This document shows, piece by piece, positions 17,059 through 38,251 of a stretch of DNA of 38,671 bases. The DNA comes from Nanobdellota archaeon (GTDB lineage: Archaea; Nanobdellota; Nanobdellia; Pacearchaeales; GW2011-AR1). How positions within the stretch are numbered: the first letter of the stretch is position 1; every line of letters starts with the position of its first letter. A program made the translations under genes and the position numbers. The notes beneath the pieces are model-generated. The model was not told the DNA's origin. It did not search any database and worked only from the letters and a program-made list of their open reading frames with translations. The stretch covers positions 1-38,671 of the forward strand of contig DAOWJD010000003.1 in the NCBI GenBank assembly GCA_030640565.1. Direction: 5' to 3'.

Positions 17059-17472
17059 TCACGTCTTCTCATCAGGCTCCCTGATTTCCTTCAGGTCTTT
17101 TATATTTGTTTTCAGTGTTGAAGCCAAATCAATTATATATTTTCCTTCTTCTAATTTGTATATTAAGGGCTGGTCTTTTCTGAAAAGCTTTACAATATCA
17201 AGCTCAAATTTCCCTTCACCAGTAACCCTTATTGATTCTATATCAAGAATAACAGGTGCTTGCTGATCAGTGATTCCAACCATCTCCCTTATATCTTTTT
17301 CAACCTGTTTTTTCTGATCTTCAGGAATATTAATAATCTTTTCCTTTACCTCTTTCATCTGGTTATCTCTGATATAAAAGAAAAAATGGCTTTTGCAATT
17401 TGCACATCCTTCAAGCAACTCTCTACTGCCTGGAGAAATAATTCTTGAGCATCTCACACATTGATGGGGCAT
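17059..17472 (-). CDS. Archaeal Zn-ribbon protein (DUF2072 / COG3364-like)
   Basis: N-terminus MPHQCVRCSRIISPGSRELLEGCANCKSHFFFYIRD (CxxC...CxxC ribbon followed by the F-x-Y strand). From memory this matches the conserved archaeal Zn-ribbon family that accompanies a small GTPase. Confidence 0.65.
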   Translation of the reverse strand: MPHQCVRCSRIISPGSRELLEGCANCKSHFFFYIRDNQMKEVKEKIINIPEDQKKQVEKDIREMVGITDQQAPVILDIESIRVTGEGKFELDIVKLFRKDQPLIYKLEEGKYIIDLASTLKTNIKDLKEIREPDEKT

Positions 17473-17589: not shown

Positions 17590-17610
17590 TAATTATCTCT
17601 TGTGTCTGGC

Positions 17611-20098: not shown

Positions 20099-20449
20099 AT
20101 GTGGAAAAATTTAGCTCCAAAAATAATCAGGCAAAGACTTATAATAGAGGGAAAAGCACTGAATTTAATAGACGATAAACAACTCAAAGAATATCTTTCA
20201 AAATTATCTGATAAATTAGAAATGACTACTCTTACAGAACCAATAGCCCATCTATCTAAAAAATACGGGTGGGCAGGATGGATACACTGGGATTCTTCAG
20301 GATGTCATTTTTATGCATGGGATAAACCTTTTCCTTTCTTTAGCGTAGATATTTATACATGCAAACCTTTTTCAGTTGAAAAAGCAGTTGAATTTACAAA
20401 GAAGTTTTTCAATACAAGAGAAATTGTCTGGAAAGAAGTTAAAGTCTAA
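20099..20449 (+). CDS. S-adenosylmethionine-decarboxylase-like (pyruvoyl enzyme fold, SpeH-related) protein
   Basis: GWAGWIHWDSSGCHFYAWDKPFPFFSVDIYTCKPF aligns by eye to the SpeH core (G-V-V-V-I-S-E-S-H-x-x-x-H-T-W-P-E...D-x-F-T-C-G). A Ser-Ser pair replaces the Glu-Ser cleavage site. Confidence 0.5.
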   Translation: MWKNLAPKIIRQRLIIEGKALNLIDDKQLKEYLSKLSDKLEMTTLTEPIAHLSKKYGWAGWIHWDSSGCHFYAWDKPFPFFSVDIYTCKPFSVEKAVEFTKKFFNTREIVWKEVKV

Positions 20450-20450
20450 A

Positions 20451-20858
20451 TTATCCCTTAAGAAGCAGCTCAATCTTCTTCGGATTTCTTTTTATTTCTT
20501 TTATTATTGTTGCAGGGCCGATAATTGTTACAGCACCCATGTCTTCTCCTGCAATGCTGTTTGCTAGGTTTCTCTTAAATCTGCCAAAAAATCCACCGCT
20601 TTTGCCTCCATTGCCAGAAATTACTGCAAGCTCTATACCTTTAAAATTCTTAACATGACCCATCATAGCCATAGTGTCTTCTATAAGCCTGGTTTCTTCT
20701 TCAGGCTCAAGTTTTCCCTGAATTATCAAAATATTATTTCCTAAAACTATATTCAATATCCTCTTAATCCTCTTAGTACTATCCAAACCCCTTATTTCAG
20801 AATAAGGAAGGAATTGAATTGAAAACCCTTTTATTTTCCCCAGCCTTTTTTTCACCAT
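20451..20858 (-). CDS. Small archaea-specific protein (DUF2073-like) downstream of the GTPase
   Basis: 135 aa with no TM helix. Position directly after the small GTPase matches, from memory, the conserved archaeal neighbourhood. The family assignment is tentative. Confidence 0.5.
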   Translation of the reverse strand: MVKKRLGKIKGFSIQFLPYSEIRGLDSTKRIKRILNIVLGNNILIIQGKLEPEEETRLIEDTMAMMGHVKNFKGIELAVISGNGGKSGGFFGRFKRNLANSIAGEDMGAVTIIGPATIIKEIKRNPKKIELLLKG

Positions 20859-20908: not shown

Positions 20909-20926
20909 CGCGAATTTTAATTCGCG
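20909..20926. other. GC-cored perfect palindrome CGCGAATT-TT-AATTCGCG between the GTPase and the DUF2073-like gene
   Basis: Read directly. It is the only CGCG-containing dyad in this AT-rich spacer. It could be a hairpin or a dimeric protein-binding site. Confidence 0.6.
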
Positions 20927-20951: not shown

Positions 20952-21593
20952 TTAGACTTTCTTTGCAAGTTTAAAGATTGATTCATAAAACTCCTCGATG
21001 TTTTTTCCGTATTTTGCACTTATCCCGACAACATCATACTCAGGGAATGCTGCCTCAACCTTTTTTAAATTAGCTCTTTTCAAATCAATTTTGTTTGCAA
21101 CTATTAAAACAGGAATCTTTCTTGCAACAAGATTTCCTATAATAGTAATATTGACCTGATTGTAAGGATTCTGGATAGCATCTAAAACAATTACAACAAC
21201 ATCCATATCATCTAGCCATTTTATTGATTCAATAACTCCTTGTGTAGCTTCTTTAGCCCTGGTTTTAGCCTCTTTTTTCTTTAGTTTGAATTTTAAGAAA
21301 TCTTCATAATCTATTTTTGTGGCAATTCCAGGAGTATCTATTATTTTAAAAGTCATTTTTCTCCCCTTATAACTTATTTCAACTTTTTCTTTAAATTGGA
21401 TAGTTCTTGTTTCATGAGGTATCTTGCTCGTCTTTCCTATCTCTTTATCTGTAAAATCTTTACATATCCTATTAGCTAAACTTGTCTTCCCTGCGTTTGG
21501 TGGTCCATAAAATCCAAGCTTCAGCTCTTTTTTCTGCCCAAATATGTTAAAGAAAATCTTCTTGAAAAAATTTCCAAATGCTTTTCCTACCAT
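20952..21593 (-). CDS. Small P-loop GTPase (Era/Arf-like TRAFAC class)
   Basis: G1 GPPNAGKTS, G3 DTPG, G4 NKID, G5 SAK. Confidence 0.85.
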   Translation of the reverse strand: MVGKAFGNFFKKIFFNIFGQKKELKLGFYGPPNAGKTSLANRICKDFTDKEIGKTSKIPHETRTIQFKEKVEISYKGRKMTFKIIDTPGIATKIDYEDFLKFKLKKKEAKTRAKEATQGVIESIKWLDDMDVVVIVLDAIQNPYNQVNITIIGNLVARKIPVLIVANKIDLKRANLKKVEAAFPEYDVVGISAKYGKNIEEFYESIFKLAKKV

Positions 21594-21647
21594 AATAAAT
21601 TTTATTAAACAGGCTTATTAAATTTTTGTGTGATTATTTGATAATTA

Positions 21648-24338
21648 TTACTTTCTTGACACATTTTTCCATCCTTTATGGGGATTATCTTTTTTTATCT
21701 TTTTTGCTAAACGTATAGGAATTCTAGCCATCCCTGTTCTTTTTCCTTTATATTTTTTCATAACATATTTTCTCTGTTCAGAGCCCCATCCAGATTTTCT
21801 AAGACTTCGAATAATTTTTCTATTATCTAATCCCTTCTTTTTTGAGCTATCCACATATGTAACAATATTATAAAGATCATTTCTGTTTTTGAATAAATAC
21901 TTTTCATATCTTCTTTTATACCAATGATAAATTATCACATAAACTATAATCCCTATAATTACTAAAGAAACCAAACTTAAGATAAGGACAATCATATTTC
22001 GTCTTTCTGGTTCTTCAGAAGGACTTGAAGTATCACTCACAACAAGCTTGTTAATTGGGGGCGCAATAAATGCAGGAAGGTTACTAAACTCAACATCTTC
22101 TGTTGTGTAAAAACTAACTCTTGAAACATCTTTTAAATTCACATAAATAAAATCACCTTTTTCTTCTACGTTTCTATCAAAAACAATACCTTGAAGTTTT
22201 GGAATAATTAAGTAATAATCATAGATTATATCTTTTTTTTCAGTCAGTCTTATTTCAAAAATATTAACTAAAGAATCCACCACTGAATCATACTCTCCAG
22301 AAAATTCATTAAAATCCATTATCAAATCAACATTTTCTTGCTGCCATGTAAAAACAGCATCTCTGTAATTTTCAATTTTTTTTGAATCATAATTTCCACC
22401 ACCAATAGACTGAACAATATCCATATCAATAAAACTTTTTTCAGGAAAGAACGAAAACGAATTCGCTTGTTTTGTTTTAAATATATTCTCAGGAAGCCTT
22501 TTTTTAAGAGCAAGAAGATCTCCAACTATCGCAATATATTCAGTGTGATTTGTTGCTACACTAAATTGCTGCTCAAGTCTTTCCAATTCAGAACTTATAT
22601 TTTCTATTCTTAAGACAGAATTAAGACTTGTTTGATAGAATGTGTCTTGGTTTTGAATATCTATTCTTAGATTTCGGAGATTTATATCCATTTTATTTAA
22701 GGTGGTATTTATTAAATCTTTAGGAGAGCTTACATTAATTTCAAATGTTTTTGAAGAACTAAATCCTCTTGTGTCTGTTACAGTTACCTGTAAATCATAG
22801 AGACCTATCACAGAATAAATATGAATGCCTTTATTTATAGAGGTTGTTTCAGTACTGCCATCTCCAAAATCCCAAGAATAATCAACCACTTCTATATCTA
22901 TGGGAGAAACAACTTCAACTACGAATTCAGTAGGAAATGTGGTGGCTGTTTCCACAGGTGTTAAAGATTTTATTATAGGTACATCTTTAACTTCTATGTC
23001 TTCTGAAAAAATTTCTTCATCATCTAGTTTTAAAGAAAGACTATAATTATCAAGATTAGATGGCACTGAAAATCCTGCTTTATCAAGGAAAAGTCTTTGA
23101 TAATCAGAACTTATCTTTGCAAAATCTTCTGTTAATTCATAAATAGTTGTTGTAGAGGAAGAAATTCCTGCCATATAAGATAAGCTTATGTCTGAGACCA
23201 CTATTTCCTGATTATCTGCACCAGATGCAAATTTAATAGGAATAATACACTCATTAGAACAATCCCTCTCGTACTTTGCTATAATATAATTAAAAATTTC
23301 ATCTTCTATCACTAAATCGCTTCCAGAATTATCCATTTCTGTATCATTTAAGATAAAACTCCCTACGTCATCATAGTATGATGCTTGAGCGAAAATTTCA
23401 AAATCATAAGTATATGCATTATAAAAAAAATCTGTAAAACCGCACACATTATTTTCTTCATGCCTTACCCCATATTTGTCAATGTCTGCTGAGCTTGTTG
23501 TTTTTATACACACAAAAAAATCCCGTGGCTGAGTTGTCTTTAAATTAGAAATAGTACAACTTATTTTTCCAGAACTAGATATATTCTGGATGCAAGATTT
23601 ACGGTCTCCAGTGATTTTATCACGAATAGATATTGTAAAATTAACATTTCCTCCAGTTATTTCTTGAACCTTAGCCCCTATTTTAACTTGGGGGAAAATA
23701 GGCATAGAAATTTCTTGGCAATATTCTGTTGTTGTAATTTGTGCTAATTCTTCTGAATCATCTTCTTCAAAACAACCATAATCTTCTGTCTGATATTGTT
23801 CATATGGTTTATATGCTCTCCAATCAGTTTCATTGTTATCTAATACATCTATAACAAGCTGAGGAACAGATGAAGAGGTAGAATTACTATTTATTCCCAT
23901 AGAAAAAGAAGAGATTGATCCTATTGGCTGAGAACTGGAAATTTTCAAACCAAGAATTTCTGAATCTCCCGAATCTAAAATAAAAGTCTTTGAGGTTTCC
24001 CCATTGGTTGCAGAATAGTCTTTTCCACAATCTAACGGGATGCAGGTGCATGAATCTTTATAAGCAGGATTTTTATCAAGTAACTCTTGAAGACTTGTTG
24101 AATTTCCAGGAGAATTGTCAAAAAAAGAAGAGAAAACAGAGTTTGCAGATTTTTCATCAAAGCTAATATTTATCCAACCATTAATATCAGCTAAAGGCCC
24201 ATATATTTTTTCTATAGAATGGCTAGGTTCCCCAACCATATAACTCCCAGCAAGCGATGATACAAAAATACCTATAGAAAATACAATTAAACCTAACATT
24301 ACAAGCATTTTAACATACTTTTTCAAATAAAACCCCAT
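21648..24338 (-). CDS. Large surface protein: signal anchor, Cys-containing N-terminal region, PKD domain, C-terminal TM helix and basic cytoplasmic tail
   Basis: PKD signature VDYSWDFGDGSTETTS...GLYDLQVTVTDTRG at 22728-22967. TM helix MIVLILSLVSLVIIGIIVYVIIY. The ATG at 24338 with GGTGG 6-10 nt upstream is preferred over the TTG at 24374. Confidence 0.8.
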   Translation of the reverse strand: MGFYLKKYVKMLVMLGLIVFSIGIFVSSLAGSYMVGEPSHSIEKIYGPLADINGWINISFDEKSANSVFSSFFDNSPGNSTSLQELLDKNPAYKDSCTCIPLDCGKDYSATNGETSKTFILDSGDSEILGLKISSSQPIGSISSFSMGINSNSTSSSVPQLVIDVLDNNETDWRAYKPYEQYQTEDYGCFEEDDSEELAQITTTEYCQEISMPIFPQVKIGAKVQEITGGNVNFTISIRDKITGDRKSCIQNISSSGKISCTISNLKTTQPRDFFVCIKTTSSADIDKYGVRHEENNVCGFTDFFYNAYTYDFEIFAQASYYDDVGSFILNDTEMDNSGSDLVIEDEIFNYIIAKYERDCSNECIIPIKFASGADNQEIVVSDISLSYMAGISSSTTTIYELTEDFAKISSDYQRLFLDKAGFSVPSNLDNYSLSLKLDDEEIFSEDIEVKDVPIIKSLTPVETATTFPTEFVVEVVSPIDIEVVDYSWDFGDGSTETTSINKGIHIYSVIGLYDLQVTVTDTRGFSSSKTFEINVSSPKDLINTTLNKMDINLRNLRIDIQNQDTFYQTSLNSVLRIENISSELERLEQQFSVATNHTEYIAIVGDLLALKKRLPENIFKTKQANSFSFFPEKSFIDMDIVQSIGGGNYDSKKIENYRDAVFTWQQENVDLIMDFNEFSGEYDSVVDSLVNIFEIRLTEKKDIIYDYYLIIPKLQGIVFDRNVEEKGDFIYVNLKDVSRVSFYTTEDVEFSNLPAFIAPPINKLVVSDTSSPSEEPERRNMIVLILSLVSLVIIGIIVYVIIYHWYKRRYEKYLFKNRNDLYNIVTYVDSSKKKGLDNRKIIRSLRKSGWGSEQRKYVMKKYKGKRTGMARIPIRLAKKIKKDNPHKGWKNVSRK

Positions 24339-24412
24339 AATTTCCACCACATCTTTCTTTATTAAAAAAGACAAAACCAGTTTATAAATTTGTTTGTGAA
24401 TTTGGTTTTATT

Positions 24413-25363
24413 TTACTTCCTTCCTTTAAAATAAAAAAAACTTGCCATAATCCCTAAAACAAACAAAACCACTCCAACAATATTAGAATTTTTTTGACTT
24501 AAATTACTAACAACATTTCCTGTAATATTAAATGATAAAAAAGCTAATCCAGCCACCAGACCTCCTACAGCTAAAATTCCTGGGACCAAATTTTCAAGTC
24601 GATTACTTTTTTTACAAATAATCTTTTTATGTGTCTTTGCTAAAGCTGCACTAATTGCTTGTGAAACATATACTCCAAGCTTTGGTATGCTTTTCTCTGT
24701 ACCTTGCGTAGAAATTCTCATTGCTGGTCCTAATTCAATATGATAAGCAATTATACCTTTAGATCTAGCATTTTTAATTGATTTTGAATCCTGACCAGTC
24801 AGTGTAATCCTATCATAATTGCCAGAAACCCGCAACTTTTTTAATTTAGAGGCAATTTCAGGTTCTTGATTCTTGATTTTACTACTAATATTTTTCAATT
24901 GATTTTTTATCTTTTTAGCTAAATGTTCAGAATATGATGAAAGATTTTTAGAACCACAACTAACTTCTACACCAAAAGGTCTTTTCTTTCCTCCTTTATG
25001 ACCATGAATCTCTACAAATATTTCAGGAGATGTATCAATTGTATGTTTGAGATAAGTTCCTTCTAATTTATTTGGATCTCTATTTGCTCTTGTAGCTACA
25101 ATAAGTTGGCCTCTGCAATGATCTGCAATATTTCTTGCTACATAAGCAGTATTATTATCAGCAGGTCTTTTCCCTTTAGCAATTGTATTTTCCCCCTTTG
25201 GAGCATTATGAGGAGCAGCCACAATTATTTCATTCGCTCCAAACTTAGTTTCAATTAAATTATTTCTTTTTTTTAATGCATCATGAAATTCATTAGAATA
25301 AGCAGAATCTTGGCGATTTACTTTCATCTTAAAATATTTATTTTTTGGCATAATTTTCACCAT
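24413..25363 (-). CDS. Membrane-anchored protein with an N-formylglutamate-amidohydrolase / PghP-like zinc hydrolase-type domain (tentative)
   Basis: IIVAAPHNAPKGE ... ADNNTAYVARNIADHCRGQLIVATRANRDPNK ... FVEIHGH resembles the FGase-type H/D/H pattern. Two C-terminal TM helices and no N-terminal signal peptide. The start abuts the upstream stop. Confidence 0.4.
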   Translation of the reverse strand: MVKIMPKNKYFKMKVNRQDSAYSNEFHDALKKRNNLIETKFGANEIIVAAPHNAPKGENTIAKGKRPADNNTAYVARNIADHCRGQLIVATRANRDPNKLEGTYLKHTIDTSPEIFVEIHGHKGGKKRPFGVEVSCGSKNLSSYSEHLAKKIKNQLKNISSKIKNQEPEIASKLKKLRVSGNYDRITLTGQDSKSIKNARSKGIIAYHIELGPAMRISTQGTEKSIPKLGVYVSQAISAALAKTHKKIICKKSNRLENLVPGILAVGGLVAGLAFLSFNITGNVVSNLSQKNSNIVGVVLFVLGIMASFFYFKGRK

Positions 25364-26665
25364 CTATTTCTTCTTTTTTGAAAGGATTATTATTGTGTAT
25401 ACCATTGCTATGATAATAAGTGTTGCAACAAGGCTATAAAGATTAAAGAAGGGAAGTGGAATCTGCGCAGGACATGGAGTGTCCCTATGTCCCTCTTTAC
25501 ATTGATCTGCTAAGGCTTGATTCTCTTCTCGACATGTAGGATTACACCCGTCATCCCATGTCCATAAAGCTGTCCAGTCAAATGTTAAAAATCCATCATC
25601 ACAATTATCTTCTGTGAATTGCGTGTAAACACATGTTCCTACTTCAGAACCACCACTCTCAACTGTCCAACTAAAAGCACATTCACTTGTTGTAATATTC
25701 CATGTACAACCACAATTCATTGTTGGGTCTTCACAATCTACAGTAGTTGGAGTACTATCTTGAAGATTAATGTTACAAAAATTAGAATTACAATCATCTT
25801 CATCAGTATAACCTTTACAGAGAATAGGTTCTGGATCATAAGGACATTCAGCAAGAACAAGAAGATCTGGCGTACTACTTGTCACAGTTTCATCTGGGTT
25901 AGCAACAACTGTTGCAACAAAAGAATATTTATCATCATGAGAAGGATTTGCAGTCCATATTCCAGACACACTAGTGCTTCCTGACTCGAAAACAACATTC
26001 TCAGGATTTGTGCATCCACTAATTTCACCATCACAAGCATCAGAACCTCTAAAAACTTCAAAAGAAATAGTTTCTCCATCGCAACTTGTTCCATTAACTA
26101 TTACATCTACATTTGTTTCTTCAACAACTGTTTCAGATTCCCATGTTGCAGATGTTAACTCGCATATTTCAGGATATTCAATTACACAACAAATTTTTGA
26201 CTCATAATTTTGGCTGTCTACAGCTTCAATATGGGCATTTATCAAATTAGATATGTAAACCACTTCGATTTCACCAATTCCACAACTAAATCCTGAATCA
26301 ACACTACTACAATCTTTTAAACTATCATAACAAACATCAGTAGCATAATTTGGAGAGATTAAATCAGGTGCTTCTGCATGAGCATTTGTAGAAGAAGATA
26401 AAGCAATAATTTTATTATTATCTGTACAAGTTGTATCTCCTGTTCCAAAATTACAACATAAAACAGGAACAAAAGTTCCTTGATCTGCCAATGCTCCATG
26501 AGCATTTGTAGAATCAGAAATGCTCATTACAACTTTATATTCATTATTCTCACAATCAGCAGAGCCCCCCATTTCAACCCAGCACATATCAACAGCAGAA
26601 ACAGTGTTAAGTAATATTATTGTTAAAAATAAAAACCCCAGCAGTATCAATATCTTTTTTGACAT
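25364..26665 (-). CDS. Secreted Cys-rich protein with three NAH-motif modules and a C-terminal TM anchor plus KKKK tail
   Basis: Signal peptide MSKKILILLGFLFLTIILLNTVSA-VD from the ATG at 26665; the ORF-track start at 26704 is a TTG. Three C-x(n)-S-x-x-x-NAH-x(n)-CC modules, more than 30 Cys, C-terminal IPLPFFN + TM + KKKK. Confidence 0.75.
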   Translation of the reverse strand: MSKKILILLGFLFLTIILLNTVSAVDMCWVEMGGSADCENNEYKVVMSISDSTNAHGALADQGTFVPVLCCNFGTGDTTCTDNNKIIALSSSTNAHAEAPDLISPNYATDVCYDSLKDCSSVDSGFSCGIGEIEVVYISNLINAHIEAVDSQNYESKICCVIEYPEICELTSATWESETVVEETNVDVIVNGTSCDGETISFEVFRGSDACDGEISGCTNPENVVFESGSTSVSGIWTANPSHDDKYSFVATVVANPDETVTSSTPDLLVLAECPYDPEPILCKGYTDEDDCNSNFCNINLQDSTPTTVDCEDPTMNCGCTWNITTSECAFSWTVESGGSEVGTCVYTQFTEDNCDDGFLTFDWTALWTWDDGCNPTCREENQALADQCKEGHRDTPCPAQIPLPFFNLYSLVATLIIIAMVYTIIILSKKKK

Positions 26666-26691
26666 TTTTAATTGAATTTTATTATTTATTT

Positions 26692-27123
26692 TTATCTGCA
26701 ACAAACTTGTCCTTGTATTGGAGGATTATCAGATGAAACCAATTTTCTTATTATTTTAATTCCACTTTGAACACATTCCCCATTTGCATCAGCAGTTTTC
26801 CATGTTCCTCCTAACCCTGTTACACATGTTTGGTCTGATTCTTGTTGAACAAAACAAGATATTGCAGGACATGTTTCAACATTATATTCTGTGTATAAAG
26901 AATTTTTTGAAAGCTCATCACATGTAGTTATTAATTCATTAGTTACCTTTCTTTCAACAACACAAAAAGCTGTTTTTTGGTTACTTTCACAAGCAAAACT
27001 GCACTGAACATCAATGGGATTTGGTTCTTCTCCTTCTTTATCTAAAATTAAAACAATTCCTACTATAATAACTATTAAAACAAGAATAGCTATAATAACC
27101 CAAATAAGTTTTTTATTACCCAT
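26692..27123 (-). CDS. Small N-terminally anchored Cys-rich extracytoplasmic protein (143 aa)
   Basis: TM helix LIWVIIAILVLIVIIVGIVLIL followed by a 12-Cys ectodomain ending in VCCR. Confidence 0.65.
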   Translation of the reverse strand: MGNKKLIWVIIAILVLIVIIVGIVLILDKEGEEPNPIDVQCSFACESNQKTAFCVVERKVTNELITTCDELSKNSLYTEYNVETCPAISCFVQQESDQTCVTGLGGTWKTADANGECVQSGIKIIRKLVSSDNPPIQGQVCCR

Positions 27124-27203
27124 CTCTTTTTTTACCTAGATATATTAATAAGTTCTATTTTATAAATATTCTTCTTTTATCCTATATCTTTTGTAAAAAA
27201 ATT

Positions 27204-29744
27204 CTAAGAAGCAAAAACAGACTTAATTTTTCCACCTATAAATGAAATTACCTCTCTTATGATATTTGATATGGATTTCATAATATTGTTCTTGTCAGCG
27301 TTTGATTGAAGATATATTGTTCCGTCATAAGGTAAGTCTACATTAACACCATTAAAAGAGCCAGTATTATCAAAATCAATCACATTATCGTCATTTGAAT
27401 TCTGTTGTTCTCCTGTAAAATCATTCTCTTCGTCATCTTCTTCAGGTCCAAAATAATATTCATTAGGAGTTCCAGTTATCTGGCTTTCTCCATAAAACCC
27501 AAGTCCAAGAATATTTTCTAGATAATCTACACTAGGATATTTTGCAAGAGGAAATGTCATGAATGTTTCTTCATAAATAAGTTTTCCTGTTTTTTTGTCT
27601 GCAGGACCTGTTATAGATAAAGGTGTTCCTGCTATCATAATACTTTGATTAGAAGGCATAGATACAGATACAGGAAGATCCCCTCCAATAAATATGTGCC
27701 CAAATTCATGAGAGATAGTTCTATTATTAATATAGGTTCCTCCAAACTTAGGACGTAAGTATACTGTTCCACCATAACCAATTATACCTCCTGCTTTCCT
27801 AGGTTCTGCAAGTCCGTTATAGTACATATTCAAATAAGGAACAACAATTATCCATCCAGGGTCTGCAACTACTCTTACTTTTGGATCAACATGATATTCA
27901 TAGAAATCAAAATGTCCATCACTCCCATTTACAATAAATACTTGCTCTTCATTTATACTATAATTTCCAATAATTCCACTAATATCATTTAAGTCAAGTA
28001 TTTTGTTTTTTATAGTATTCTGATGCTCTTCTGTGAATGTTCCATTTTCTGCTCCAAAAGGATTTTCACTAAGAATCTCAATTCCTATAAGACCGGTATA
28101 ATTTTCAAAATCAGGAAATTCTGAAAGATATTCTCCGTCAAAATCAAATCTTGTGTTTGGTCTGTCCCCTGTTAGTTCTGTCATAAACTGTCTGAATAAT
28201 ACAGGATCATCTTCATAAGGAGCATAAGGCACAGCTCGAACCAAGACACCTGAATGATCATCACCAGCGAGTTCAATTGTTCTTACATAACCTTCATAGT
28301 TTTCATCTGTTCCAATTCTCGCCTGCAGAATAATTTCCTCTAAGTCTGATGCTCTTTCATTTATTTGAAAACTAAATATTCCATTAGAAGTTGTCTCAAT
28401 TTTTCCTGAACCGATATTGATAGAGGTACCTTCATATATTTGGTTGATTTCTAAAGGAAGATAATCACTTGAATAAACCCTTATTACTCCTTGTATTTCA
28501 GTATCATCTTCATTGTTTTCTAAAACACCCGACATATCAACAAGATTATAAATAAATCCTTCAAGCATGGCGGTTCCTTGTTCTCCTTCAAAATCTCCAA
28601 ATTCAAGTTCTACTTCATAATCTCCTGTTTCATCTCTGTTTCCTTCAAGTGTCAAAAGACCGCCAGAATTAACAGAGGCATTTATTTTGCTAGAACTTGC
28701 AGAAAGATAAGCCACAGGATTGTCTTCAGGATTTATATCTGTAGGAACAGGAAGTGTTATTACCTTTAAACTTTCTTCATTAAAGTTCTCATTAGGAATA
28801 GAACCAACCACAGGAGCATAATCTGGAATATCAATATAATCTGTCTCATTTAAATCATATCCAACAGCTTCAAGTATAAAGCGATAATCTCCTTTTGTCG
28901 CTCCATGAATCTCATAGCTAAAAGTTTCAGTATATGAAGGAATAGTGATATCTCTTGTTATAATTAGCTCATAGTTGTCTGAACCAAACTCTTTATAATA
29001 AACTTCTAATACTGCGCTGTCTAATTCTGAGAGAGTTGCATAATACTCAACATTAACATAATCACTAAGATTAACTGTTTGCAAAAGAGAAGGATTTGGA
29101 ATCCATATTACTGTAAGAGTATATGGTTGGGTGTCTGTATCTATTTCATCTGAAACAACAACTTCAACATCAAAATCAGTATCTTCATCAACTTCAGGGG
29201 CTGTTCCTGTGATTAAACCAGAACCAGAATTTATTGAAAGCCATCCAGGAGCATCTGAAAGAGAGTAGGTTAGCGCGTGATTATCCTGGTCTGTAGCTTC
29301 AACCTGATAATTATAAGATTCACCTTCATCAACTTCTGTAACTGGATCAGAATTTATTACAGGAGGATAATTAATAACATCCAGATAAAGGATAGTACTC
29401 ATATCTCCAAAGCCATCAGATCCAAGAATTCTTACCTGAAAATCATCTGGCATAGAATAAATACCCTGATTAACAGTATATATCTGGGCAAAACTATTTT
29501 GATTAACTACTCTGTCTTCAAAAGTATGAATTAAATCATTACCAGAATCATACAACTTTATGCTTATTGTCATTGGAGGAGATATTGTTCCGAAAAAAGC
29601 ACTGAAATCCACTGAATCTCCGTCCTCTATTTCAATTGATTGTGCATGATTGTCATTCCATTCTCCGTAAACAACAACAGCGCTTACAGTATTAACTAGA
29701 AAAATTAAAAATACAGCCAAAAACAAAATTTTTATTGCTTTCAT
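27204..29744 (-). CDS. Secreted 846-aa protein with a He_PIG / cadherin-like Ig domain and a C-terminal HEXXH metalloprotease-like region
   Basis: Signal peptide MKAIKILFLAVFLIFLVNTVSA. PPVINSDPVTEVDEGESYNYQVEATDQDNHALTYSLSDAPGWLSINSGSGLITGT at 29106-29369. HEFGH at 27696-27710. Confidence 0.75.
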   Translation of the reverse strand: MKAIKILFLAVFLIFLVNTVSAVVVYGEWNDNHAQSIEIEDGDSVDFSAFFGTISPPMTISIKLYDSGNDLIHTFEDRVVNQNSFAQIYTVNQGIYSMPDDFQVRILGSDGFGDMSTILYLDVINYPPVINSDPVTEVDEGESYNYQVEATDQDNHALTYSLSDAPGWLSINSGSGLITGTAPEVDEDTDFDVEVVVSDEIDTDTQPYTLTVIWIPNPSLLQTVNLSDYVNVEYYATLSELDSAVLEVYYKEFGSDNYELIITRDITIPSYTETFSYEIHGATKGDYRFILEAVGYDLNETDYIDIPDYAPVVGSIPNENFNEESLKVITLPVPTDINPEDNPVAYLSASSSKINASVNSGGLLTLEGNRDETGDYEVELEFGDFEGEQGTAMLEGFIYNLVDMSGVLENNEDDTEIQGVIRVYSSDYLPLEINQIYEGTSINIGSGKIETTSNGIFSFQINERASDLEEIILQARIGTDENYEGYVRTIELAGDDHSGVLVRAVPYAPYEDDPVLFRQFMTELTGDRPNTRFDFDGEYLSEFPDFENYTGLIGIEILSENPFGAENGTFTEEHQNTIKNKILDLNDISGIIGNYSINEEQVFIVNGSDGHFDFYEYHVDPKVRVVADPGWIIVVPYLNMYYNGLAEPRKAGGIIGYGGTVYLRPKFGGTYINNRTISHEFGHIFIGGDLPVSVSMPSNQSIMIAGTPLSITGPADKKTGKLIYEETFMTFPLAKYPSVDYLENILGLGFYGESQITGTPNEYYFGPEEDDEENDFTGEQQNSNDDNVIDFDNTGSFNGVNVDLPYDGTIYLQSNADKNNIMKSISNIIREVISFIGGKIKSVFAS

Positions 29745-30415
29745 TATCTGTTCCCCCTTCTAGAAAAAGATAAAATTGCTCTTAGATTGACATACATCCC
29801 TCTTTTTAATCCATTTTTTTTAGAACTTATTTCATAACCAAGATTTGGATTTAATTCTAACCCTTTAATTATTTCGAAACTAGGACCGGCATAGACATTC
29901 CAGACAAATTTTTTTTCTAAAACAGAGCTAGTATTTGAGGCAAGTAAAGACTCTTCACTACCTGTTCTCCTTACTAAATTTTCTTCTATCTTTCTGGTGT
30001 GGCCCTCTAGATATCCGCCAATTCCAGTAACCCAAGATATTCCTTTTGCAAGAGGCTGATGATATTCAAAAGATGCTCCAATAGATGGTGAGAAATCCTT
30101 AAGGTCTTCTCTACCTTGGAAATAAACATTTCCAAACATTTCTTCTTCAGTATTCTGTAAATTTATGTTAGGGTATGAACTTATAGGAATGTTTCCTACC
30201 AAAGCAAATCTATTGTATTTTACACCAAATTCTATTCCAAATGATTTATTGATCTCAATTCCTCTTCTTGCTCCTAATATAATTGATAATGGAGCTTTTT
30301 CTTTTTTAGAAGAATCAGACGCATAAACTGCTTGTGAAGGTGATAAGCATGTAGCTAATGCAGCACCTGCCACTATTTTTTTAAAATTAACTTTTTTACT
30401 ATGCCTTTTCGCCAT
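29744..30415 (-). CDS. Exported beta-strand-rich protein (possible lipoprotein / beta-barrel-like), TAATG-coupled to the 846-aa gene
   Basis: Basic N-terminus followed by IVAGAALATC (lipobox-like) and AVYA-SD. Alternating-pattern strands. Last strand is VNLRAILSF. Confidence 0.6.
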   Translation of the reverse strand: MAKRHSKKVNFKKIVAGAALATCLSPSQAVYASDSSKKEKAPLSIILGARRGIEINKSFGIEFGVKYNRFALVGNIPISSYPNINLQNTEEEMFGNVYFQGREDLKDFSPSIGASFEYHQPLAKGISWVTGIGGYLEGHTRKIEENLVRRTGSEESLLASNTSSVLEKKFVWNVYAGPSFEIIKGLELNPNLGYEISSKKNGLKRGMYVNLRAILSFSRRGNR

Positions 30416-30436
30416 AAAAGTGTTACTACTTTGCGG

Positions 30437-30444
30437 TTTATATA
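30437..30444 (-). promoter_or_regulatory. TATA-like box (reads TATATAAA on the minus strand) for the 30415 gene
   Basis: Centre is about 26 nt upstream of the ATG at 30415. Confidence 0.4.
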
Positions 30445-30501
30445 GTTTACTATTAGAACACCATCTTTAGTTCTAAATTAATTAATACAATATAAGTGAA
30501 T

Positions 30502-30855
30502 CTAGGGGGTGTCACGATTGCCATAACTAATATTCTTATTTGACACAGTATCGATTAGGTCTCTCACATCATTTCTTTTGTCAAGCGTATGGTCATATAT
30601 TACTTGCAATCTTTCTTGTTCTTCCTTTGAGCTCTTATAATAATACATAAAATCTTTAAGGTTATTCATGCGATGATCACAGTTTTCTACAGTTATACTT
30701 CCTACTGTTCTCAATTTTTGTACCATTTTTTGTCTCATTTCTTGATTTCCGTTTTTATAGCCTGTTTCATACAAGGTTTTACCACCAAAATAACTTCCAG
30801 TAGTAATTAGACTAATTCCTACAAGTCCGAGTGCAATTTTTTGTTTCAATTTCAT
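30502..30855 (-). CDS. Small N-terminally anchored protein (117 aa), first gene of the surface array
   Basis: TM/signal anchor IALGLVGISLITTGSYF. GGAGG lies 8 nt upstream of the ATG. Confidence 0.6.
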   Translation of the reverse strand: MKLKQKIALGLVGISLITTGSYFGGKTLYETGYKNGNQEMRQKMVQKLRTVGSITVENCDHRMNNLKDFMYYYKSSKEEQERLQVIYDHTLDKRNDVRDLIDTVSNKNISYGNRDTP

Positions 30856-30958
30856 TTTAATACCTCCATCATAATTTAATTGTTACTATTTAGTAGTATA
30901 TTGTAATATTTAAATCTTCCGATTCAAATTTTTATTAAAAACAAAAGATTTATATATA

Positions 30959-31948
30959 ATGGTTGCAATAGATAAAATTATGAGACTAGACATCCTTGAC
31001 AAGAAAATATTATATGAACTTGAATTAGATTCATCACAATCTTGTGTTTCAATAGCTAAAAAACTAAAACGATCAAAAGAGTTAATCAATTTTAGAATAC
31101 ATCGTTTAGAGAAAGATAAGATTCTTCTTGGATGCAGTGCAATAGTGGATATGTCAAAACTAGGCTATTCCACATTCCGAATTTATCTTCGTTGGCAGAA
31201 TATGACTAACGAACAAAAGAAACAATCTTATGATGAAATAAAAGTAAAAGAAAATATTTGGGCTACAACAGTTCTTCATGGTAAATGGGATTTTGCATTT
31301 TTTATAGGTGTAAAATCAGATTATTATATCGAATCTTTTCAGAAGATATGGAATGAAATATTATCTAAATATAAAAATAAAATTGCAGAGAGTAAAATTG
31401 CGATATATTCACCAGTGCATAATTTCAATAAACGATTTTTTATTGATTTTAGCATGCCAGTAAAAATTATCGAACGTATTTACGGAAATAGTTCACCAAT
31501 AGATTTTGATGAAATGGATGAAAAAATTATAAATGTTTATGCAAGTAATGTAAGAACTCCATTAACAAAAATCTCAGAAAAACTTAAAATCACCTCTGAA
31601 GCAGTTAGAAAAAGAATAAAAAAGCTTGAGAATAAAAAAATTATTGTTGGCTACAAAATCAATTTAAATCTTCCAAAAATAGGTTATCAAGGATATAGGG
31701 TTGATTTTTTGTTAAATTCTATATCAAGAAATAAAGAGATTTTTCAATATATTCAAAAACACAAATATTTTTATCAAATAAACCGTTCAATTGGTGGAGC
31801 TGATTTCGAAACAGAAATAGTTGTTAAAAATTTAAACCATCTATTAGAAATTCTTGAAGAAGTAGTAAAAAAATTTAGCGATGTTATTAAAGCGTATGAA
31901 TACTTTGGTTATTCAGAATTCCCAACTCTTTCAATCGTACCCGATTAA
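30959..31948 (+). CDS. Tandem (two-unit) Lrp/AsnC-family transcriptional regulator
   Basis: Two HTH_AsnC-like segments (LDKKILYELELDSSQSCVSIAKKLKRSKELINFRIHRLEKDKIL and MDEKIINVYASNVRTPLTKISEKLKITSEAVRKRIKKLENKKII). Each is followed by an RAM-like alpha/beta segment. Confidence 0.8.
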   Translation: MVAIDKIMRLDILDKKILYELELDSSQSCVSIAKKLKRSKELINFRIHRLEKDKILLGCSAIVDMSKLGYSTFRIYLRWQNMTNEQKKQSYDEIKVKENIWATTVLHGKWDFAFFIGVKSDYYIESFQKIWNEILSKYKNKIAESKIAIYSPVHNFNKRFFIDFSMPVKIIERIYGNSSPIDFDEMDEKIINVYASNVRTPLTKISEKLKITSEAVRKRIKKLENKKIIVGYKINLNLPKIGYQGYRVDFLLNSISRNKEIFQYIQKHKYFYQINRSIGGADFETEIVVKNLNHLLEILEEVVKKFSDVIKAYEYFGYSEFPTLSIVPD

Positions 31949-31991: not shown

Positions 31992-33404
31992 TTACCCAAT
32001 CATAACTGCAATAGGTTTTAATTTAGCTACTTTTTTGCTTAAATTGGCTTTTTCAGTAACTTTTATTACTTCTTCTACATCTTTGTATGACAATTCAGAT
32101 TCTTCCATTGTCCCTTTAAAACTTCCTTCAAGAATTATATTCTTTTTTGCAAGAATATCTTTTACCTGTTTTTGGTTTAAGGTTTTGTGGGTCCAACTTC
32201 TGCTGTGAGCTCTGCCAGCCCCATGAGCACTTGATGAAAATGAAATCGTTTCAGCTTCTTTTTTCCCTACTAAAACAAAAGAATTAGTACTCATACTTCC
32301 AGGGATTAGAACAGGCTGCCCAACTTTTCTATACACTTCAGATAGTTCTTTTCTGCCAGGTCCAAAACTCCGTGTTGCTCCTTTCCGCACCACTAACACA
32401 TTCTTTTTTTTATTGTCTATCATATGCTCTTCAATTTTTGCAATATTATGACAAACATCATACACTAAACTAGATTTTTTATCTGGAAAATCTTCTTTTA
32501 ATATTTTTCTTATCTCATGCATAATCATTTGTCTATTACAAAATGCGAAATTCGCAGAACACCTCATCGCTGAAAGATATTTTTGACCAATATTGCTATT
32601 TATTGGTGCATAAACAAGTTCTCTATCAGGCAAGTCTTTAGTGCCATATTTATCTTCTGTTAATTTAAGATAATCAGAAGCTACTTGATGCCCTAATCCA
32701 CGAGAACCACAATGAATCATTATTCCTATTTTTCCCTTTTCTAAGCCAAAAACTTTTGCAGTATCTTTATCATAAATTTCATCAATAACCATAATATCAA
32801 TAAAATGATTTCCAGCTCCCAAGGTTCCTAGTTGAGGTAAGCCTCTAGCTATAGCTCTTTCTGAAACATCCTCTGGGTTTGCTCCACTCATTCTTCCATT
32901 TTCCTCTATCCTTTCCAAATCTTCTTTAGTACCATAACCATTATCAATAGCCCATTTTGCACCGTCAACTAAAACTTTTTTTATTGTTTCTTTAGAATAT
33001 CTTTTTCCTCCTCTACCAACCCCTGATGGAATGGTTCTTTTTAGATTATGAAGTATTTTTTCTCTTTTTGGCATAAATTCTTCTTTAGAAATATTTGTTG
33101 TTAATAATCCAACCCCACAATTAATATCATAGCCAATTTCTCCTGGTGAAATTACGCCTTTTTCTAAGTCATATGCAGCTACCCCACCAATACATGCTCC
33201 ATAGCCTTGGTGAGCGTCAGGAAGCACCACAATGTTCTTTAAAACTCCTGGTAAATATGCCATGTTTATTGCCTGTTTAATAGTGTCATCCCGTTTTATT
33301 CCTTCAAGTATTTTTTTAGATGCAATTATCAAAATAGGTACTTGCATTTTTTTCTGTTTTTCTATTTTCCAAAGATTTTCTTCTATTTTTTTGATTTCAA
33401 CCAT
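31992..33404 (-). CDS. rtcB: RtcB RNA 3'-phosphate ligase (tRNA-splicing ligase)
   Basis: PDAHQGYG, GYDINCG, GAGNHFI, HCGSRGLGHQV and SAHGAGR motifs. Collinear and full length (470 aa), so no intein. Confidence 0.93.
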   Translation of the reverse strand: MVEIKKIEENLWKIEKQKKMQVPILIIASKKILEGIKRDDTIKQAINMAYLPGVLKNIVVLPDAHQGYGACIGGVAAYDLEKGVISPGEIGYDINCGVGLLTTNISKEEFMPKREKILHNLKRTIPSGVGRGGKRYSKETIKKVLVDGAKWAIDNGYGTKEDLERIEENGRMSGANPEDVSERAIARGLPQLGTLGAGNHFIDIMVIDEIYDKDTAKVFGLEKGKIGIMIHCGSRGLGHQVASDYLKLTEDKYGTKDLPDRELVYAPINSNIGQKYLSAMRCSANFAFCNRQMIMHEIRKILKEDFPDKKSSLVYDVCHNIAKIEEHMIDNKKKNVLVVRKGATRSFGPGRKELSEVYRKVGQPVLIPGSMSTNSFVLVGKKEAETISFSSSAHGAGRAHSRSWTHKTLNQKQVKDILAKKNIILEGSFKGTMEESELSYKDVEEVIKVTEKANLSKKVAKLKPIAVMIG

Positions 33405-34285
33405 TTTTCTACCTGAGTATTATCCAATAATTTATTCTTTATAGTTTTTTTTATTTCTTCATATTTATTTATACAAAGTTCAAAATAAATAGTTCCAACA
33501 CCATTTTTTCTTTTACCTGTCCTAGATTCAATATTATAAATTTTTTTTAAATATGATTTAAGTTGTAAAATATTTTTTTCTTTATTTGAGCACAATCTAA
33601 TCGTTTTATTCCCCCCACTTATTCTTGCTTTCTTTAACATAATCTCTTTAATGAATTCTTTAAGTTCACTTTTCTTATTTGAAAACTTCCAATAATAATT
33701 TACATAATCATTAACTGCTTCTTTTAATTTTTCTTTTTTACTTGGGTGCAAAAATCCAATCTTTTCTCCAAATTTTATTAAATTCTTTTTTCCATAAATC
33801 CTTAATGAAAAAATATCCCTATCAGTCCTTTTTTTAATTTTTGAAGATATTCCAAGATTTTTTAATATTTTCCCAATTTTTTCTAAACCTTTTTTATTAA
33901 CACTCTCTAATCCAATATGCCTATTTTGATGACTTTTACACGTAACCCATCCTTCACAATCAAAAAATGTTCTTAACCATTTTTTATAAAATTCCCTCTT
34001 TAATAAAGGCACCATCCATTCCCGAGAATAAAATGAACCAAACTTAGAAATAAATTTTTCATATAATTCTTTTTTTTGAACAACACATCTTTCCCCTTCA
34101 TATAATCTTGGTTGGATACCAAAATATTTTTTAAATCTTTCCTGAAAATCTTTTAATAAAATAATATTTGTATTTCTAAGTCCAATACAATAATATTTGT
34201 GTTTTTGAGTTTCTGGATTTTTTATTACATAACCATCAGCACACAAATAAGCATGAATAACAGCTAAGTTTTCATCAAATTTCAT
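33383..34285 (-). mobile_element. Free-standing double-motif LAGLIDADG homing-endonuclease-like gene
   Basis: Two LAGLIDADG-type helices about 95 residues apart: LAVIHAYLCADGYV and WLRTFFDCEGWV. Own ATG and stop. The 3' end overlaps the rtcB start by 22 nt. Confidence 0.8.
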
Positions 34286-34345: not shown

Positions 34346-34762
34346 TCAAACATCCACCACCACTTGACTAACCCACCTGCCTTTATCTTTTTTTACAAAC
34401 ATATTATGATAAGTTATTGCTTTTATATGAACATCTGCATTATAATTTTTTATATCATCTCCTACAACTTCTGCTTCTATCTCAAATTCTTTCTCATTTA
34501 ATTTTAAGTTCTTTATTCTGCCTGGCAAAAAATTCTTGCTATCAAACAAAACTAAAAACTCTTCTAAAAAATTATATAATAAACTTTCAAAATCTTTTCC
34601 GTTTACCTTAACTTTATAATTTTTTTTCTCTTTAATCTTTTTATTATATAGTATATTAAACAAAGCAAGAGCAGAATTTTCAAAAACCTCGTCGGTGTTT
34701 TTACCAAAAGCTCTGAACTTTATATCTGCAGTGTGTTCTAAAAATTCAAATTTCTTTTCCAT
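34346..34762 (-). CDS. Archease (RtcB activator / RNA-enzyme chaperone)
   Basis: FEFLEHTADIKFRAFGKNTDEVFENSALALF and the C-terminal IKAITYHNMFV...VVVDV. The ATG at 34762 (TAATG overlap with the upstream stop) gives the typical length of about 139 aa. Confidence 0.88.
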   Translation of the reverse strand: MEKKFEFLEHTADIKFRAFGKNTDEVFENSALALFNILYNKKIKEKKNYKVKVNGKDFESLLYNFLEEFLVLFDSKNFLPGRIKNLKLNEKEFEIEAEVVGDDIKNYNADVHIKAITYHNMFVKKDKGRWVSQVVVDV

Positions 34763-36222
34763 TATTTCTGAAATCCCTTTGCTTTTTTCAATAAAACAAT
34801 CCATTGATTAGTCTCATCAATTATTTCTAATCCTAATTTTTGCATAATTTCTTTGAAATCTTGTTTATTTATAATGACCTTTATATATTTGTTTCGTATA
34901 ATAAATTTTTTATCTTGATAAACATATATGTTTGTTAACTTATGATTTTCTATTACTTTTTTGTTAAATAATTTAAATTCTTTATTTTTTCCTTTATCCT
35001 GTTTCTTATTTATAAACAAGAAACCTTTTTCTAGAAGATTATTAGATATAGATTTTAATATTTTAAGAGAATCTTCAAAATCTGTCGCCCAAATTTCTAT
35101 CATACCATTCTTGAAACCAATAAAATTATGGGAATACATGGCCTTAGTTGATTTTATATTTAATTCCTTTATATTTTGTAGAACATATTTCACTTTAGAA
35201 ACATTCTTTGTTTTTCTTTTAGCTATATCTAGCATTTCTTTTGAAATATCTATACCTAAGACCCTATATCTTTTTCTTAATAAATATTTTGAAAAATTAG
35301 CAGTACCTACTCCTAGTTCTACAAGTTGTTCATGCTCTAAATTATATTTTTTAAGTAATTTAATTAAGTTTCTTGCGCTTTTTGGATAATTATAAAGTTT
35401 TTCTCCGATTCCACTATATACCCTTGCTATAATTTTATTAAAATAAACACCTTTGATTTTATTCTCTGCACATTTTCTCACTACTTCATCTAAAAAAGGA
35501 CAAGAAAATGTTAATTTCAATCTAGAGTGTTGGAATAACTGTAGTGGTTTTTTCTCTGCTCTTTTAAATTTTCTTATCAGTTCATTATTTATTTTAGAAG
35601 AGGCTAAGATTAAAAATCCTATATCAGTTTTATTTTTTATTTTCTTAGTTTTTAATTTAATCAATTCTTCTACATTAATACCAAGAGATTTATGCACCTT
35701 ACTTAAAAGATAAATTAAATAACCTTCTGATAAATAATATTTTGAGATACTTTCAACATTCTTTTTAAAGTATTTTTTTCTTTTTTTTAAAAATTTAATT
35801 ATTCTTTCTTTTTCTGTTTTTTTAATTTTATTTCTTATTAAATAATCAAGAATAACCAAATTTATCAACATATCTACAGAATTATTGGATTTTGATTTCA
35901 ATCCACCAAGATATGTATAAACACCACCTTCTTTACTAAAATCAAGTTTTAATTCTTTTTTAATTGGTTTTTCGATTAAATCAAAAATATTCCTTTCTAT
36001 GATTGTAGTATCGTAATCAAAAGGATAGCCTTTGTTCCATCTTATATAATTATTTTTCTCAAAACTTTTTTGTAGTTTTGTTTTAATTTTTCCAAAATTC
36101 TCTCTTTTTAACGGTAATCCTTCCTCTAAAGCTATCTCTAATGCTAAAGAGGGTATAAAATGATGAAATATCTCTTTTTTACCTTTTGGAGATTGAATTA
36201 TTGTATTTAGTTTTCCCCCCAT
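34762..36222 (-). CDS. Two-domain protein: unknown ~290-aa N-terminal domain + class I SAM-dependent methyltransferase
   Basis: Motif I LVELGVGTANFSKYLL, then VLGIDISKEMLDIAKRK. The N-terminal region is not recognised. Confidence 0.7.
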   Translation of the reverse strand: MGGKLNTIIQSPKGKKEIFHHFIPSLALEIALEEGLPLKRENFGKIKTKLQKSFEKNNYIRWNKGYPFDYDTTIIERNIFDLIEKPIKKELKLDFSKEGGVYTYLGGLKSKSNNSVDMLINLVILDYLIRNKIKKTEKERIIKFLKKRKKYFKKNVESISKYYLSEGYLIYLLSKVHKSLGINVEELIKLKTKKIKNKTDIGFLILASSKINNELIRKFKRAEKKPLQLFQHSRLKLTFSCPFLDEVVRKCAENKIKGVYFNKIIARVYSGIGEKLYNYPKSARNLIKLLKKYNLEHEQLVELGVGTANFSKYLLRKRYRVLGIDISKEMLDIAKRKTKNVSKVKYVLQNIKELNIKSTKAMYSHNFIGFKNGMIEIWATDFEDSLKILKSISNNLLEKGFLFINKKQDKGKNKEFKLFNKKVIENHKLTNIYVYQDKKFIIRNKYIKVIINKQDFKEIMQKLGLEIIDETNQWIVLLKKAKGFQK

Positions 36223-36661: not shown

Positions 36662-36680
36662 TTTAAATTTATTAACATCA

Positions 36681-37409: not shown

Positions 37410-37410
37410 A

Positions 37411-38250: not shown

Positions 38251-38251
38251 A

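Follow-up and report, generated by a model that had tools for sequence, protein, structure and literature searches.

A run of seven genes for apparently exported or membrane-bound proteins in a small archaeal genome raises two questions: whether the genes form one functional unit, and which of them are shared with related organisms. Both were addressed for a stretch of 38,671 nt, contig DAOWJD010000003.1 of the Nanobdellota archaeon assembly GCA_030640565.1, hereafter termed the window. The array consists of seven co-directional genes on the minus strand (A to G), with a gene for a two-unit Lrp/AsnC regulator (R) transcribed divergently from its upstream end. The earlier note on this DNA had proposed a single host-contact module. 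The comparison of related genomes favours, with modest confidence, a different organization: a mosaic locus whose core is a conserved and uncharacterised group of cell-surface genes from Nanoarchaeota of the Woese-/Pacearchaeota type. Within this core E, followed by G, would be constant, in a fixed slot between rtcB and arvA-arvB-arvC-cca. Almost nothing has been described of the envelope and host-contact proteins of Woesearchaeota and Pacearchaeota, abundant archaea of very small genome size that have not been brought into culture; E and G, in about 300 species-level genomes and joined by C and D in a subclade, are concrete surface-layer candidates for the clade.

Conservation of the E-G pair between rtcB and arvA

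An alignment of G was scanned over one genome per GTDB species, which yielded 324 encoding stretches, and the best 80 of the 324 were taken as G-anchored loci. Almost all of these 80 belong to metagenome-assembled genomes (MAGs) of Woesearchaeota, Pacearchaeota or Nanoarchaeota. The closest loci come from Woesearchaeota and Pacearchaeota MAGs, which bears out the guess, made from the letters of the window, of a reduced DPANN archaeon. The presence of each family was assessed by tblastn and hidden Markov model (HMM) searches in 86 related loci, 80 of which are G-anchored, so that G is present there by construction. Seven loci were fetched through homologues of E (E-anchored loci) and their gene tables inspected. 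Single loci are cited below by our own numbers (L002, L003 and so on).

The eight families differ widely in their occurrence. G was present in all 86 loci, E in 71, the core of C in 26, D in 14 and B in 3; A, F and R were found in none (0/86). E and G occurred together in 71 loci, C with E and G in 25, D with E and G in 13, and the four families C, D, E and G in 8. Recurrence of at least four families together, set beforehand as the mark of a module, is thus seen for C, D, E and G (8/86) but not for seven genes plus a regulator, and the idea that all eight form one conserved module has to be given up.

The position of E relative to G is constrained. Of 57 assessable G-anchored genomes, 50 have E upstream of G and in the same orientation; among the 33 loci for which the upstream 10 kb is complete, the figure is 32. 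E lies within 600 nt of G in 39 of the 57, despite a sequence identity of only about 30-35%. In all seven E-anchored loci, C, D, E and G follow one another in the same order between rtcB and arvA. These loci share a backbone that begins with genes for T2SSE, a small open reading frame (ORF), T2SSF, a second T2SSF, two further genes, (archease) and RtcB, and continues after RtcB with a 620-860-aa protein, a protein of about 144 aa, E, G, ArvA, ArvB, ArvC, the CCA enzyme and TrmB.

The strongest conserved linkage is that of G with arvA-arvB directly on its downstream side, which the earlier note, stopping at position 21648, had missed. In the window, arvA (OapA; 20952..21593, minus strand) lies 54 nt downstream of G and encodes a small GTPase of 213 aa, assigned from matches to GTPase families as Arf-like; its Arf match covers the N-terminal residues 10-50, with a whole-protein score equal to the cut-off of 22.3 bits. 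On the same strand are arvB (OapB; 20451..20858; PF09846, E=1.3e-15) and arvC (OapC; 17059..17472; PF09845, E=2e-21). Of 73 assessable genomes, 72 have arvA immediately after G in the same orientation, the gap having a median of 56 nt; in L070, G is present and arvA is not downstream. Further along, arvB is downstream of arvA in 52 of 52 loci, all three arv genes are present in 52/52 and cca is downstream in 52/52; rtcB is upstream in 26 of 33. Literature searches returned no report of the G-arvA linkage or of these protein families.

ArvA/B/C is the newer name of the OapA/B/C proteins, given once ArvA had been found to drive the formation of extracellular vesicles in Haloferax volcanii, the one species for which this role has been shown (PMC10927574). 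In that study, ArvA was found in seven DPANN phyla, arvB followed arvA in 93% of the genomes surveyed, and only the downstream neighbours of arvA were analysed (PMC10927574). The window resembles the Haloferax operon in carrying homologues of arvA, arvB and arvC, here directly downstream of G, with arvB after arvA. It differs in three respects: the surface genes C to G are not homologous to any Arv protein, arvA has a promoter of its own (see below), and arvC is parted from arvB by two inserted genes, while in seven related loci inspected it follows arvB directly or after one small ORF. The two genes are on the plus strand, an 810-aa helix-turn-helix plus beta-propeller gene at 17602-20034 and an AdoMet (S-adenosylmethionine)-decarboxylase-like gene at 20099-20449.

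Lineage-specific genes of the array

The seven minus-strand ORFs, from 30855 down to 21648, are present where they had been placed, and public gene calls for the same contig agree, with 117, 223, 846, 143, 433, 316 and 896 aa for A to G. Their spacing is operon-like, as claimed: the stop codon of B overlaps the start of C by 1 nt at 29744 (TAATG), the stop of E abuts the start of F (25364/25363), and the remaining gaps are 86, 80, 26 and 74 nt. R diverges from A across a spacer of 103 nt. In a Kyte-Doolittle scan, C, D, E and G begin with strong hydrophobic segments, E and G also have a C-terminal transmembrane (TM) segment, and F carries a pair of TM helices at its C-terminus; A and B have short hydrophobic N-terminal stretches only, detected with an 11-aa window. 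The products are therefore predicted to be mostly extracytoplasmic or membrane-anchored. The statement that each of the seven is exported or anchored thus holds well for C, D, E and G, and F is anchored, but F does not appear to be exported and A and B show only the short stretches. The adhesion-type domains (He_PIG in C, PKD in G) and the Cys-rich proteins (10 Cys in D, 28 in E) reported before were recovered.

The window has about 30% G+C, uniform along its length and with no compositional island, and searches of it against PHROGs and PADLOC returned nothing relevant. Uniform composition and the lack of phage or defence matches make the region unlike a foreign island, and a phage or defence origin was rejected on these two grounds. 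The absence of a match to any named system, remarked upon earlier, was likewise upheld: besides the irrelevant PHROGs and PADLOC results, E, D, the core of C and most of G have no Pfam family.

A (30502..30855, minus strand) is a 117-aa protein with a hydrophobic N-terminal segment, the hydropathy peak of which covers residues 7-17 in the 11-aa window. No family match was found for it in Pfam or NCBIfam and, from its absence in the related loci, it is classed as lineage-specific. B (29744..30415, minus strand) is a 223-aa protein with a signal-like N-terminus. Its homologues were found only in L002, L003 and L011 among the 86 loci, each time directly upstream of C.

F (24413..25363, minus strand) is a 316-aa protein with two C-terminal TM helices. 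It lacks a signal peptide and is strongly basic (53 Lys and Arg residues versus 22 Asp and Glu), and for these reasons its soluble domain probably faces the cytoplasm. Only four homologues were found; they have no TM helices and are located in other contexts, not near E or G. F is accordingly classed, by sequence comparison, as a lineage-specific insertion between E and G. It had been labelled FGase-like. Short His/Asp motifs (AAPH, DPNK and EIHGH) are kept among the four F homologues, and we take them to be reminiscent of metal-dependent amidohydrolases; F nevertheless differs from that family in matching nothing in Pfam, NCBIfam or PDB at any of the thresholds applied, whether the single sequence or a 4-sequence profile was used. 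With five such searches empty, an N-formylglutamate amidohydrolase (FGase, PF05013) was rejected as its identity.

R (30959..31948, plus strand) does contain the two Lrp-type units described earlier, with two HTH_AsnC stretches in Pfam and two LrpA/Lrp-like stretches in NCBIfam. Residues 8-114 cover positions 10-117 of the 164 of the Lrp model and residues 183-312 cover positions 2-131 of the 141 of the LrpA model. R thus has the Lrp/AsnC layout of an AsnC-type helix-turn-helix ahead of an effector (RAM) domain, twice over. The scores are under the equivalog cut-offs, which makes R a member of the Lrp/AsnC family but not a named orthologue. Two orthologues (81% and 76% identity) adjoin genes for deoxyhypusine synthase, an alpha/beta hydrolase, a DUF362 Fe-S protein and an amylase; no surface genes stand beside either of them, and the small ORFs divergent from the R orthologue in L091 show no similarity to A. 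Judged by these contexts, R is a lineage-specific neighbour outside the conserved block.

Transcription of the array was assessed with a promoter matrix built from the B recognition element (BRE)/TATA element conserved upstream of arvA in 73 genomes. The arvA promoter of the window, AATCACACAAAAATTTAATAAGC (21613..21635, minus strand), lies in the G-arvA spacer (21594-21647) and is the top-scoring site of the window (21.8). The element is conserved position by position across the 73 genomes, from -41 to -20 relative to the ATG. The end of its TATA box is 19 nt from the ATG, which points to an arvA transcript with no leader or a very short one. The sequence ATCAC(A/G)C precedes the BRE-like part and might be bound by a regulator. 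Within the array, matrix core scores were 9.7 upstream of B, 8.5 upstream of D and 10.6 upstream of G, compared to 2.1, 4.3 and 1.6 upstream of A, E and F. Of the 77,310 window positions, just 76 have a score of at least 8 and 30 a score of at least 10. The TATA boxes noticed before 30415, 27123 and 24338 are thus more than chance occurrences. The B site, on the minus strand, ends 19 nt before the ATG, and the BRE/TATA-type site of G is located at 24379..24401 on the minus strand (matrix score 13.9). With at least three promoter-like sites inside the array, before B, D and G, in addition to that of arvA, the array is not a single operon, and B-C, D-E-F, G and arvA are predicted to be separate units. 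A scan for sigma-70 promoters and intrinsic terminators showed no enrichment; these models are not applicable to archaea.

Properties of proteins E and G

G (21648..24338, minus strand) is predicted to be a type I membrane protein of 896 aa, with a PKD domain at 22731-22979, a TM helix at 21930-22010 and a cytoplasmic tail at 21729-21929. The PKD domain, already recognized by eye, was confirmed in Pfam (E=1.2e-11; 44.9 and 37.5 bits against PF18911 and PF00801, with cut-offs of 27 and 23.5). By Foldseek, the PKD domain of ColG fits the AlphaFold2 model of G with a TM-score of 0.86 normalised to the target, and profile matches to collagenase PKD domains reached 2.4e-21. The model (predicted local distance difference test, pLDDT, 87.1) contains beta-sandwich domains, the PKD domain, a four-helix segment, an alpha/beta domain, the TM helix and a three-helix cytoplasmic domain. 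Whole-chain Foldseek searches (E against PDB; G against PDB and BFVD) gave generic Ig-like, PKD and beta-sandwich matches with query-normalised TM-scores of 0.06-0.2. A low-probability match to archaeal fusexin in these searches was discarded (probability 0.35-0.38, TM-score 0.14).

About 74 full-length homologues of G were found. The tail is the best-conserved part of the protein, being 52.5% identical to distant members compared to 24-40% for the ectodomain, with the conserved sequence WYKRKYExYLFKNRNDLYN...KKGL..EI...LKKAGW.SEQI.Y. The two most conserved peptides of G, as chosen by the genome scan, both lie inside it. An HMM of the tail found G proteins only, plus one unrelated protein with a generic three-helix motif; since essentially only G was retrieved, the tail is not a sorting tag common to several surface proteins.

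E (25364..26665, minus strand) is a Cys-rich protein of 433 aa, predicted to be a type I membrane protein with a signal peptide, 28 Cys, an Ig-like sandwich, a Cys-rich stalk and a TM segment. Its AlphaFold2 model (pLDDT 91.9) begins with a signal helix and an all-beta head (residues ~27-165), followed by the Ig-like sandwich, a Cys-rich beta/alpha stalk, the peptide CPAQIPLPFF, the TM helix and KKKK. The head (26171-26587) is composed of three repeats in tandem, each some 45 residues long and containing S-x-x-T-N-A-H, and His56, His96 and His145 of these repeats are invariant across 60 homologues. The three residues might bind a metal or a ligand, on a head that is pseudo-threefold; the head itself matched no known fold. 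At the C-terminus (25367-25474), the juxtamembrane CPAQIPLPFF is conserved in the family and precedes the TM helix and KKKK. This tripartite layout of motif, TM and basic cluster is that of archaeosortase-type signals (PGF-CTERM, PEFG-CTERM, Heimdall-CTERM, Loki-CTERM); in contrast to true members, E matches them below threshold (E=0.077-1.3), with 13.5 bits against Heimdall-CTERM (cut-off 24) and 11.9 against PEFG-CTERM (cut-off 25). No archaeosortase gene was seen in the window.

The 66 homologues of E and those of G have as sources, where one is named, Pacearchaeota, Nanoarchaeota and Nanoarchaeia, plus a few labels that are probably mis-binned, and the E and G families are confined to Nanoarchaeota-type genomes, with a constant architecture. 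G is mostly single-copy, a second copy being present in 1 of 80 loci. Across loci, G is 33-66% identical and E, over its ectodomain, about 30-64%, compared to 72-93% for the neighbouring ArvA. Fast divergence of the ectodomains beside ArvA fits exposed surface proteins.

Proteins C and D, additions in a subclade

D (26692..27123, minus strand), as read from its ORF and hydropathy, is a protein of 143 aa in which an N-terminal anchor is followed by an ectodomain with 10 Cys. Where it occurs (14 loci), D almost always stands directly upstream of E, and most members have 10 Cys. The D-E pair stays together even when inverted (L019). On this evidence D is classed as a fixed upstream partner of E in a subclade.

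C (27204..29744, minus strand) is a predicted secreted, acidic protein of 846 aa with a He_PIG domain at 29109-29366, a beta-rich middle and a C-terminal HEFGH at 27696-27710. Both the He_PIG domain (PF05345; residues 127-212, E=3.3e-14, 53.5 bits against a Pfam cut-off of 24) and the late HEFGH site had been picked out before and stand. The core of C (residues 213-750) retains HExxH in 21 of 27 matches. When full-length C was run against a library of 1.84 billion representative sequences, the result was swamped by He_PIG repeat proteins; about 20 matches cover the core and were used for alignment. Iterated HMM searches with the C core and with D did not extend the families. In the 19 aligned members, HExGH is invariant, as are a downstream Met (M703, 20 residues past the second His) and Asp. 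The top PDB matches of the C-family profile are snapalysin-type proteases, and several members matched Peptidase_M43, Reprolysin or M10 in Pfam; the window sequence itself matched none of these three.

A divergent zinc peptidase of the metzincin type would be compatible with the C-terminal domain of C. This domain resembles metzincins (snapalysin M7, pappalysin/cytophagalysin M43, reprolysin M12B, matrixin M10) in its invariant HExGH, in the Gly-rich sequence with His or Asp that comes after it and in the invariant Met about 20 residues downstream, and its top weak matches are metzincins only. It differs in scoring below the cut-offs, in a third ligand shifted by one residue in most members (consensus HEFGHxFIGxGH; HEFGHIFIGGD in the window), and in its fusion to clade-specific He_PIG and beta-sandwich modules. 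Of the two hydrolases predicted in the array, the metzincin-like domain of C thus keeps some support, and the FGase-like F keeps none.

A model for the locus and its alternatives

We propose that the locus was built around its constant E-G pair. D, the N-anchored 10-Cys partner, and C, the secreted protease candidate, would be subclade additions upstream of the pair, and in this genome the slot would have gained four more genes: A, B (which is coupled to C), F and R. The proteins would be exported by Sec; E, G and D would stay membrane-anchored and form an exposed envelope or adhesive layer, the G tail would link this layer to the cytoplasm, and C may be an extracellular protease whose targets are either these proteins or the envelope proteins of foreign (host) cells. 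Transcription would proceed in several units: B-C, D-E-F, G and arvA. The near-universal presence of E and G, their constant architecture and the mostly single copy of G argue for a core envelope or adhesion function rather than for variable host-specific adhesins.

Large surface proteins of DPANN archaea have been proposed for host interaction, e.g. the SPEARE proteins of Nanohaloarchaeum antarcticus. The array products are like them in being exported multi-domain proteins with adhesion-type domains in a small-genome DPANN archaeon. They differ in that E and G are moderate in size and conserved over hundreds of species, being neither giant, lineage-specific nor variable. The locus is a new, uncharacterised variant within the familiar theme of archaeal surface-protein gene clusters.

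Several observations weigh against this model. Firstly, C and D are missing from most G-bearing genomes, which makes the four-gene set a feature of a subclade. Secondly, the export signals were judged from hydropathy alone, N-glycosylation sequons are not significantly enriched, and surface exposure, protease activity and an adhesive or structural role are all deduced from sequences and models. Thirdly, the peptidase assignment is strained: C of the window has D/L where most relatives carry G-H after HExxH, one relative has REFGH, and all metzincin matches are below family thresholds (best PDB E=0.39; best Pfam 6e-4, for one member). In addition, Foldseek and PDB profile searches with E matched only the Ig-like part and gave no functional analogue, and the non-PKD parts of G have no convincing structural or sequence relatives in Foldseek or PDB. 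Finally, the unrelated cca and rtcB genes are equally or nearly as syntenic as the surface genes, so that co-location alone is no proof of joint function.

Among the alternatives, E and G, with or without D, might be structural envelope or surface-layer (S-layer)-type proteins, G serving as stalk and E as canopy or partner, and would then play no particular part in vesiculation or in contact with a host. We regard this as unlikely, though it is well matched by near-universal families of constant length and conserved Cys pattern, mostly in single copy. G shares with surface-layer and stalk proteins a signal sequence, a beta-sandwich/PKD string, a helical segment and a C-terminal TM; its domain order presumably resembles that of anchored stalk proteins such as SlaB of Sulfolobales, and its PKD domain matches the YVTN/PKD surface-layer protein 1L0Q of Methanosarcina. 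Beyond generic PKD and Ig folds, however, the proteins have no similarity to known S-layer families, G having no other sequence or fold match, and a strongly conserved cytoplasmic tail of 70 residues is unexpected for a purely structural anchor.

That tail is central to a second alternative, in which G is a transmembrane partner of ArvABC (a cargo receptor, recruiter or membrane anchor) with a tail that binds ArvA or ArvB, so that surface contact would be coupled to budding or bridge formation. The near-invariable position of arvA directly after G, together with the basic, aromatic character of the tail and its conservation, speaks for such a role. ArvA drives vesicles in Haloferax, SepF-like ArvB has no predicted membrane-binding domain, and what the archaeal vesiculation GTPase works on in DPANN was left open (PMC10927574); we found no publication that connects ArvA with a protein of this kind in DPANN. 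On the other hand, the strongly conserved BRE/TATA promoter of arvA means that co-transcription with G is not required, the synteny of cca and, nearly, of rtcB makes adjacency weak evidence in this clade, and L070 has G without arvA downstream. We consider the partnership doubtful, and hold equally doubtful its fuller form, in which G would be the missing membrane-spanning component of ArvABC, with E, D and C as its extracellular partners, and contact at the surface, for instance with a host, would set off local budding, the release of vesicles or the formation of bridges between cells, in an archaeal analogue of the coupling of cargo receptors to Arf/Sar1. The position of G upstream of arvABC and its conserved tail nevertheless provide a testable hypothesis on the vesiculation GTPase in DPANN.

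A third alternative assumes no joint function: the rtcB-arvA interval would be a permissive insertion hotspot, and E and G would be kept together by inherited gene order only. The content between rtcB and E does vary among loci, with a Por_Secre_tail protein, radical SAM/NUDIX genes, HEPN/nucleotidyltransferase pairs and a phage-type integrase (examples of the variable interval are 101-907 in L003, 6533-7592 in L005 and 3943-7970 in L008), and given these varied inserts the slot behaves as an insertion hotspot. Several insertions are present in the window (A, R, F, a LAGLIDADG gene and a methyltransferase gene), and synteny is rigid even for unrelated genes. Against a mere hotspot stand the pairing of D and E through a joint inversion, the 1-nt overlap of B and C, and the closeness of E to G in most genomes at such low identity. 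We judge it rather improbable as a full account; even if the linkage were only inherited gene order, the supposed module of seven genes plus regulator would still be shown to be a lineage-specific mosaic. That former model, one host-contact module under the control of R, is highly improbable and as a conserved unit largely refuted, for co-directional, tightly spaced genes and a divergent regulator are outweighed by the absence of A, F and R from the related loci, the unrelated contexts of R orthologues and F homologues, and the internal promoters.

Other features of the window

The arvA-arvB spacer contains at 20909-20926 a perfect 7-bp GC-rich inverted repeat, CGCGAAT TTTA ATTCGCG, in this genome of 30% G+C; the hairpin was not conserved in 67 related arvA-arvB spacers. 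A tRNA scan and an Rfam scan of the window were both empty. The contigs with the G-arvA block in L010, L038, L084 and L077 have been assigned to MAGs of Bacillota, Patescibacteria, Omnitrophota and an Aenigmarchaeota type (Ainarchaeum), and are probably mis-binned nanoarchaeal contigs.

The rtcB gene of the window is located at 31992-33404. Two RtcB types fill the same slot upstream of the surface genes across loci. The first, of about 470 aa and 47-68% identical to the RtcB of the window, is usually paired with archease; the second, of about 390 aa and about 28% identical, is often on the opposite strand and without archease (L005-L007, L015, L016, L018, L022 and others). A free-standing LAGLIDADG_3 homing-endonuclease-like ORF (33383-34285, minus strand) overlaps the start of rtcB by 22 nt and has no counterpart between archease and rtcB in any related locus. 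A 486-aa methyltransferase gene (34762-36222) is likewise inserted into the conserved backbone. The stretch at 36224-38572 (minus strand) is the end of a type IV pilus/archaellum-like operon, found in the same position in many related genomes; it comprises T2SSF (37411-38250), the C-terminus of a second T2SSF (38252-38572) and two conserved proteins of 254 and 145 aa.

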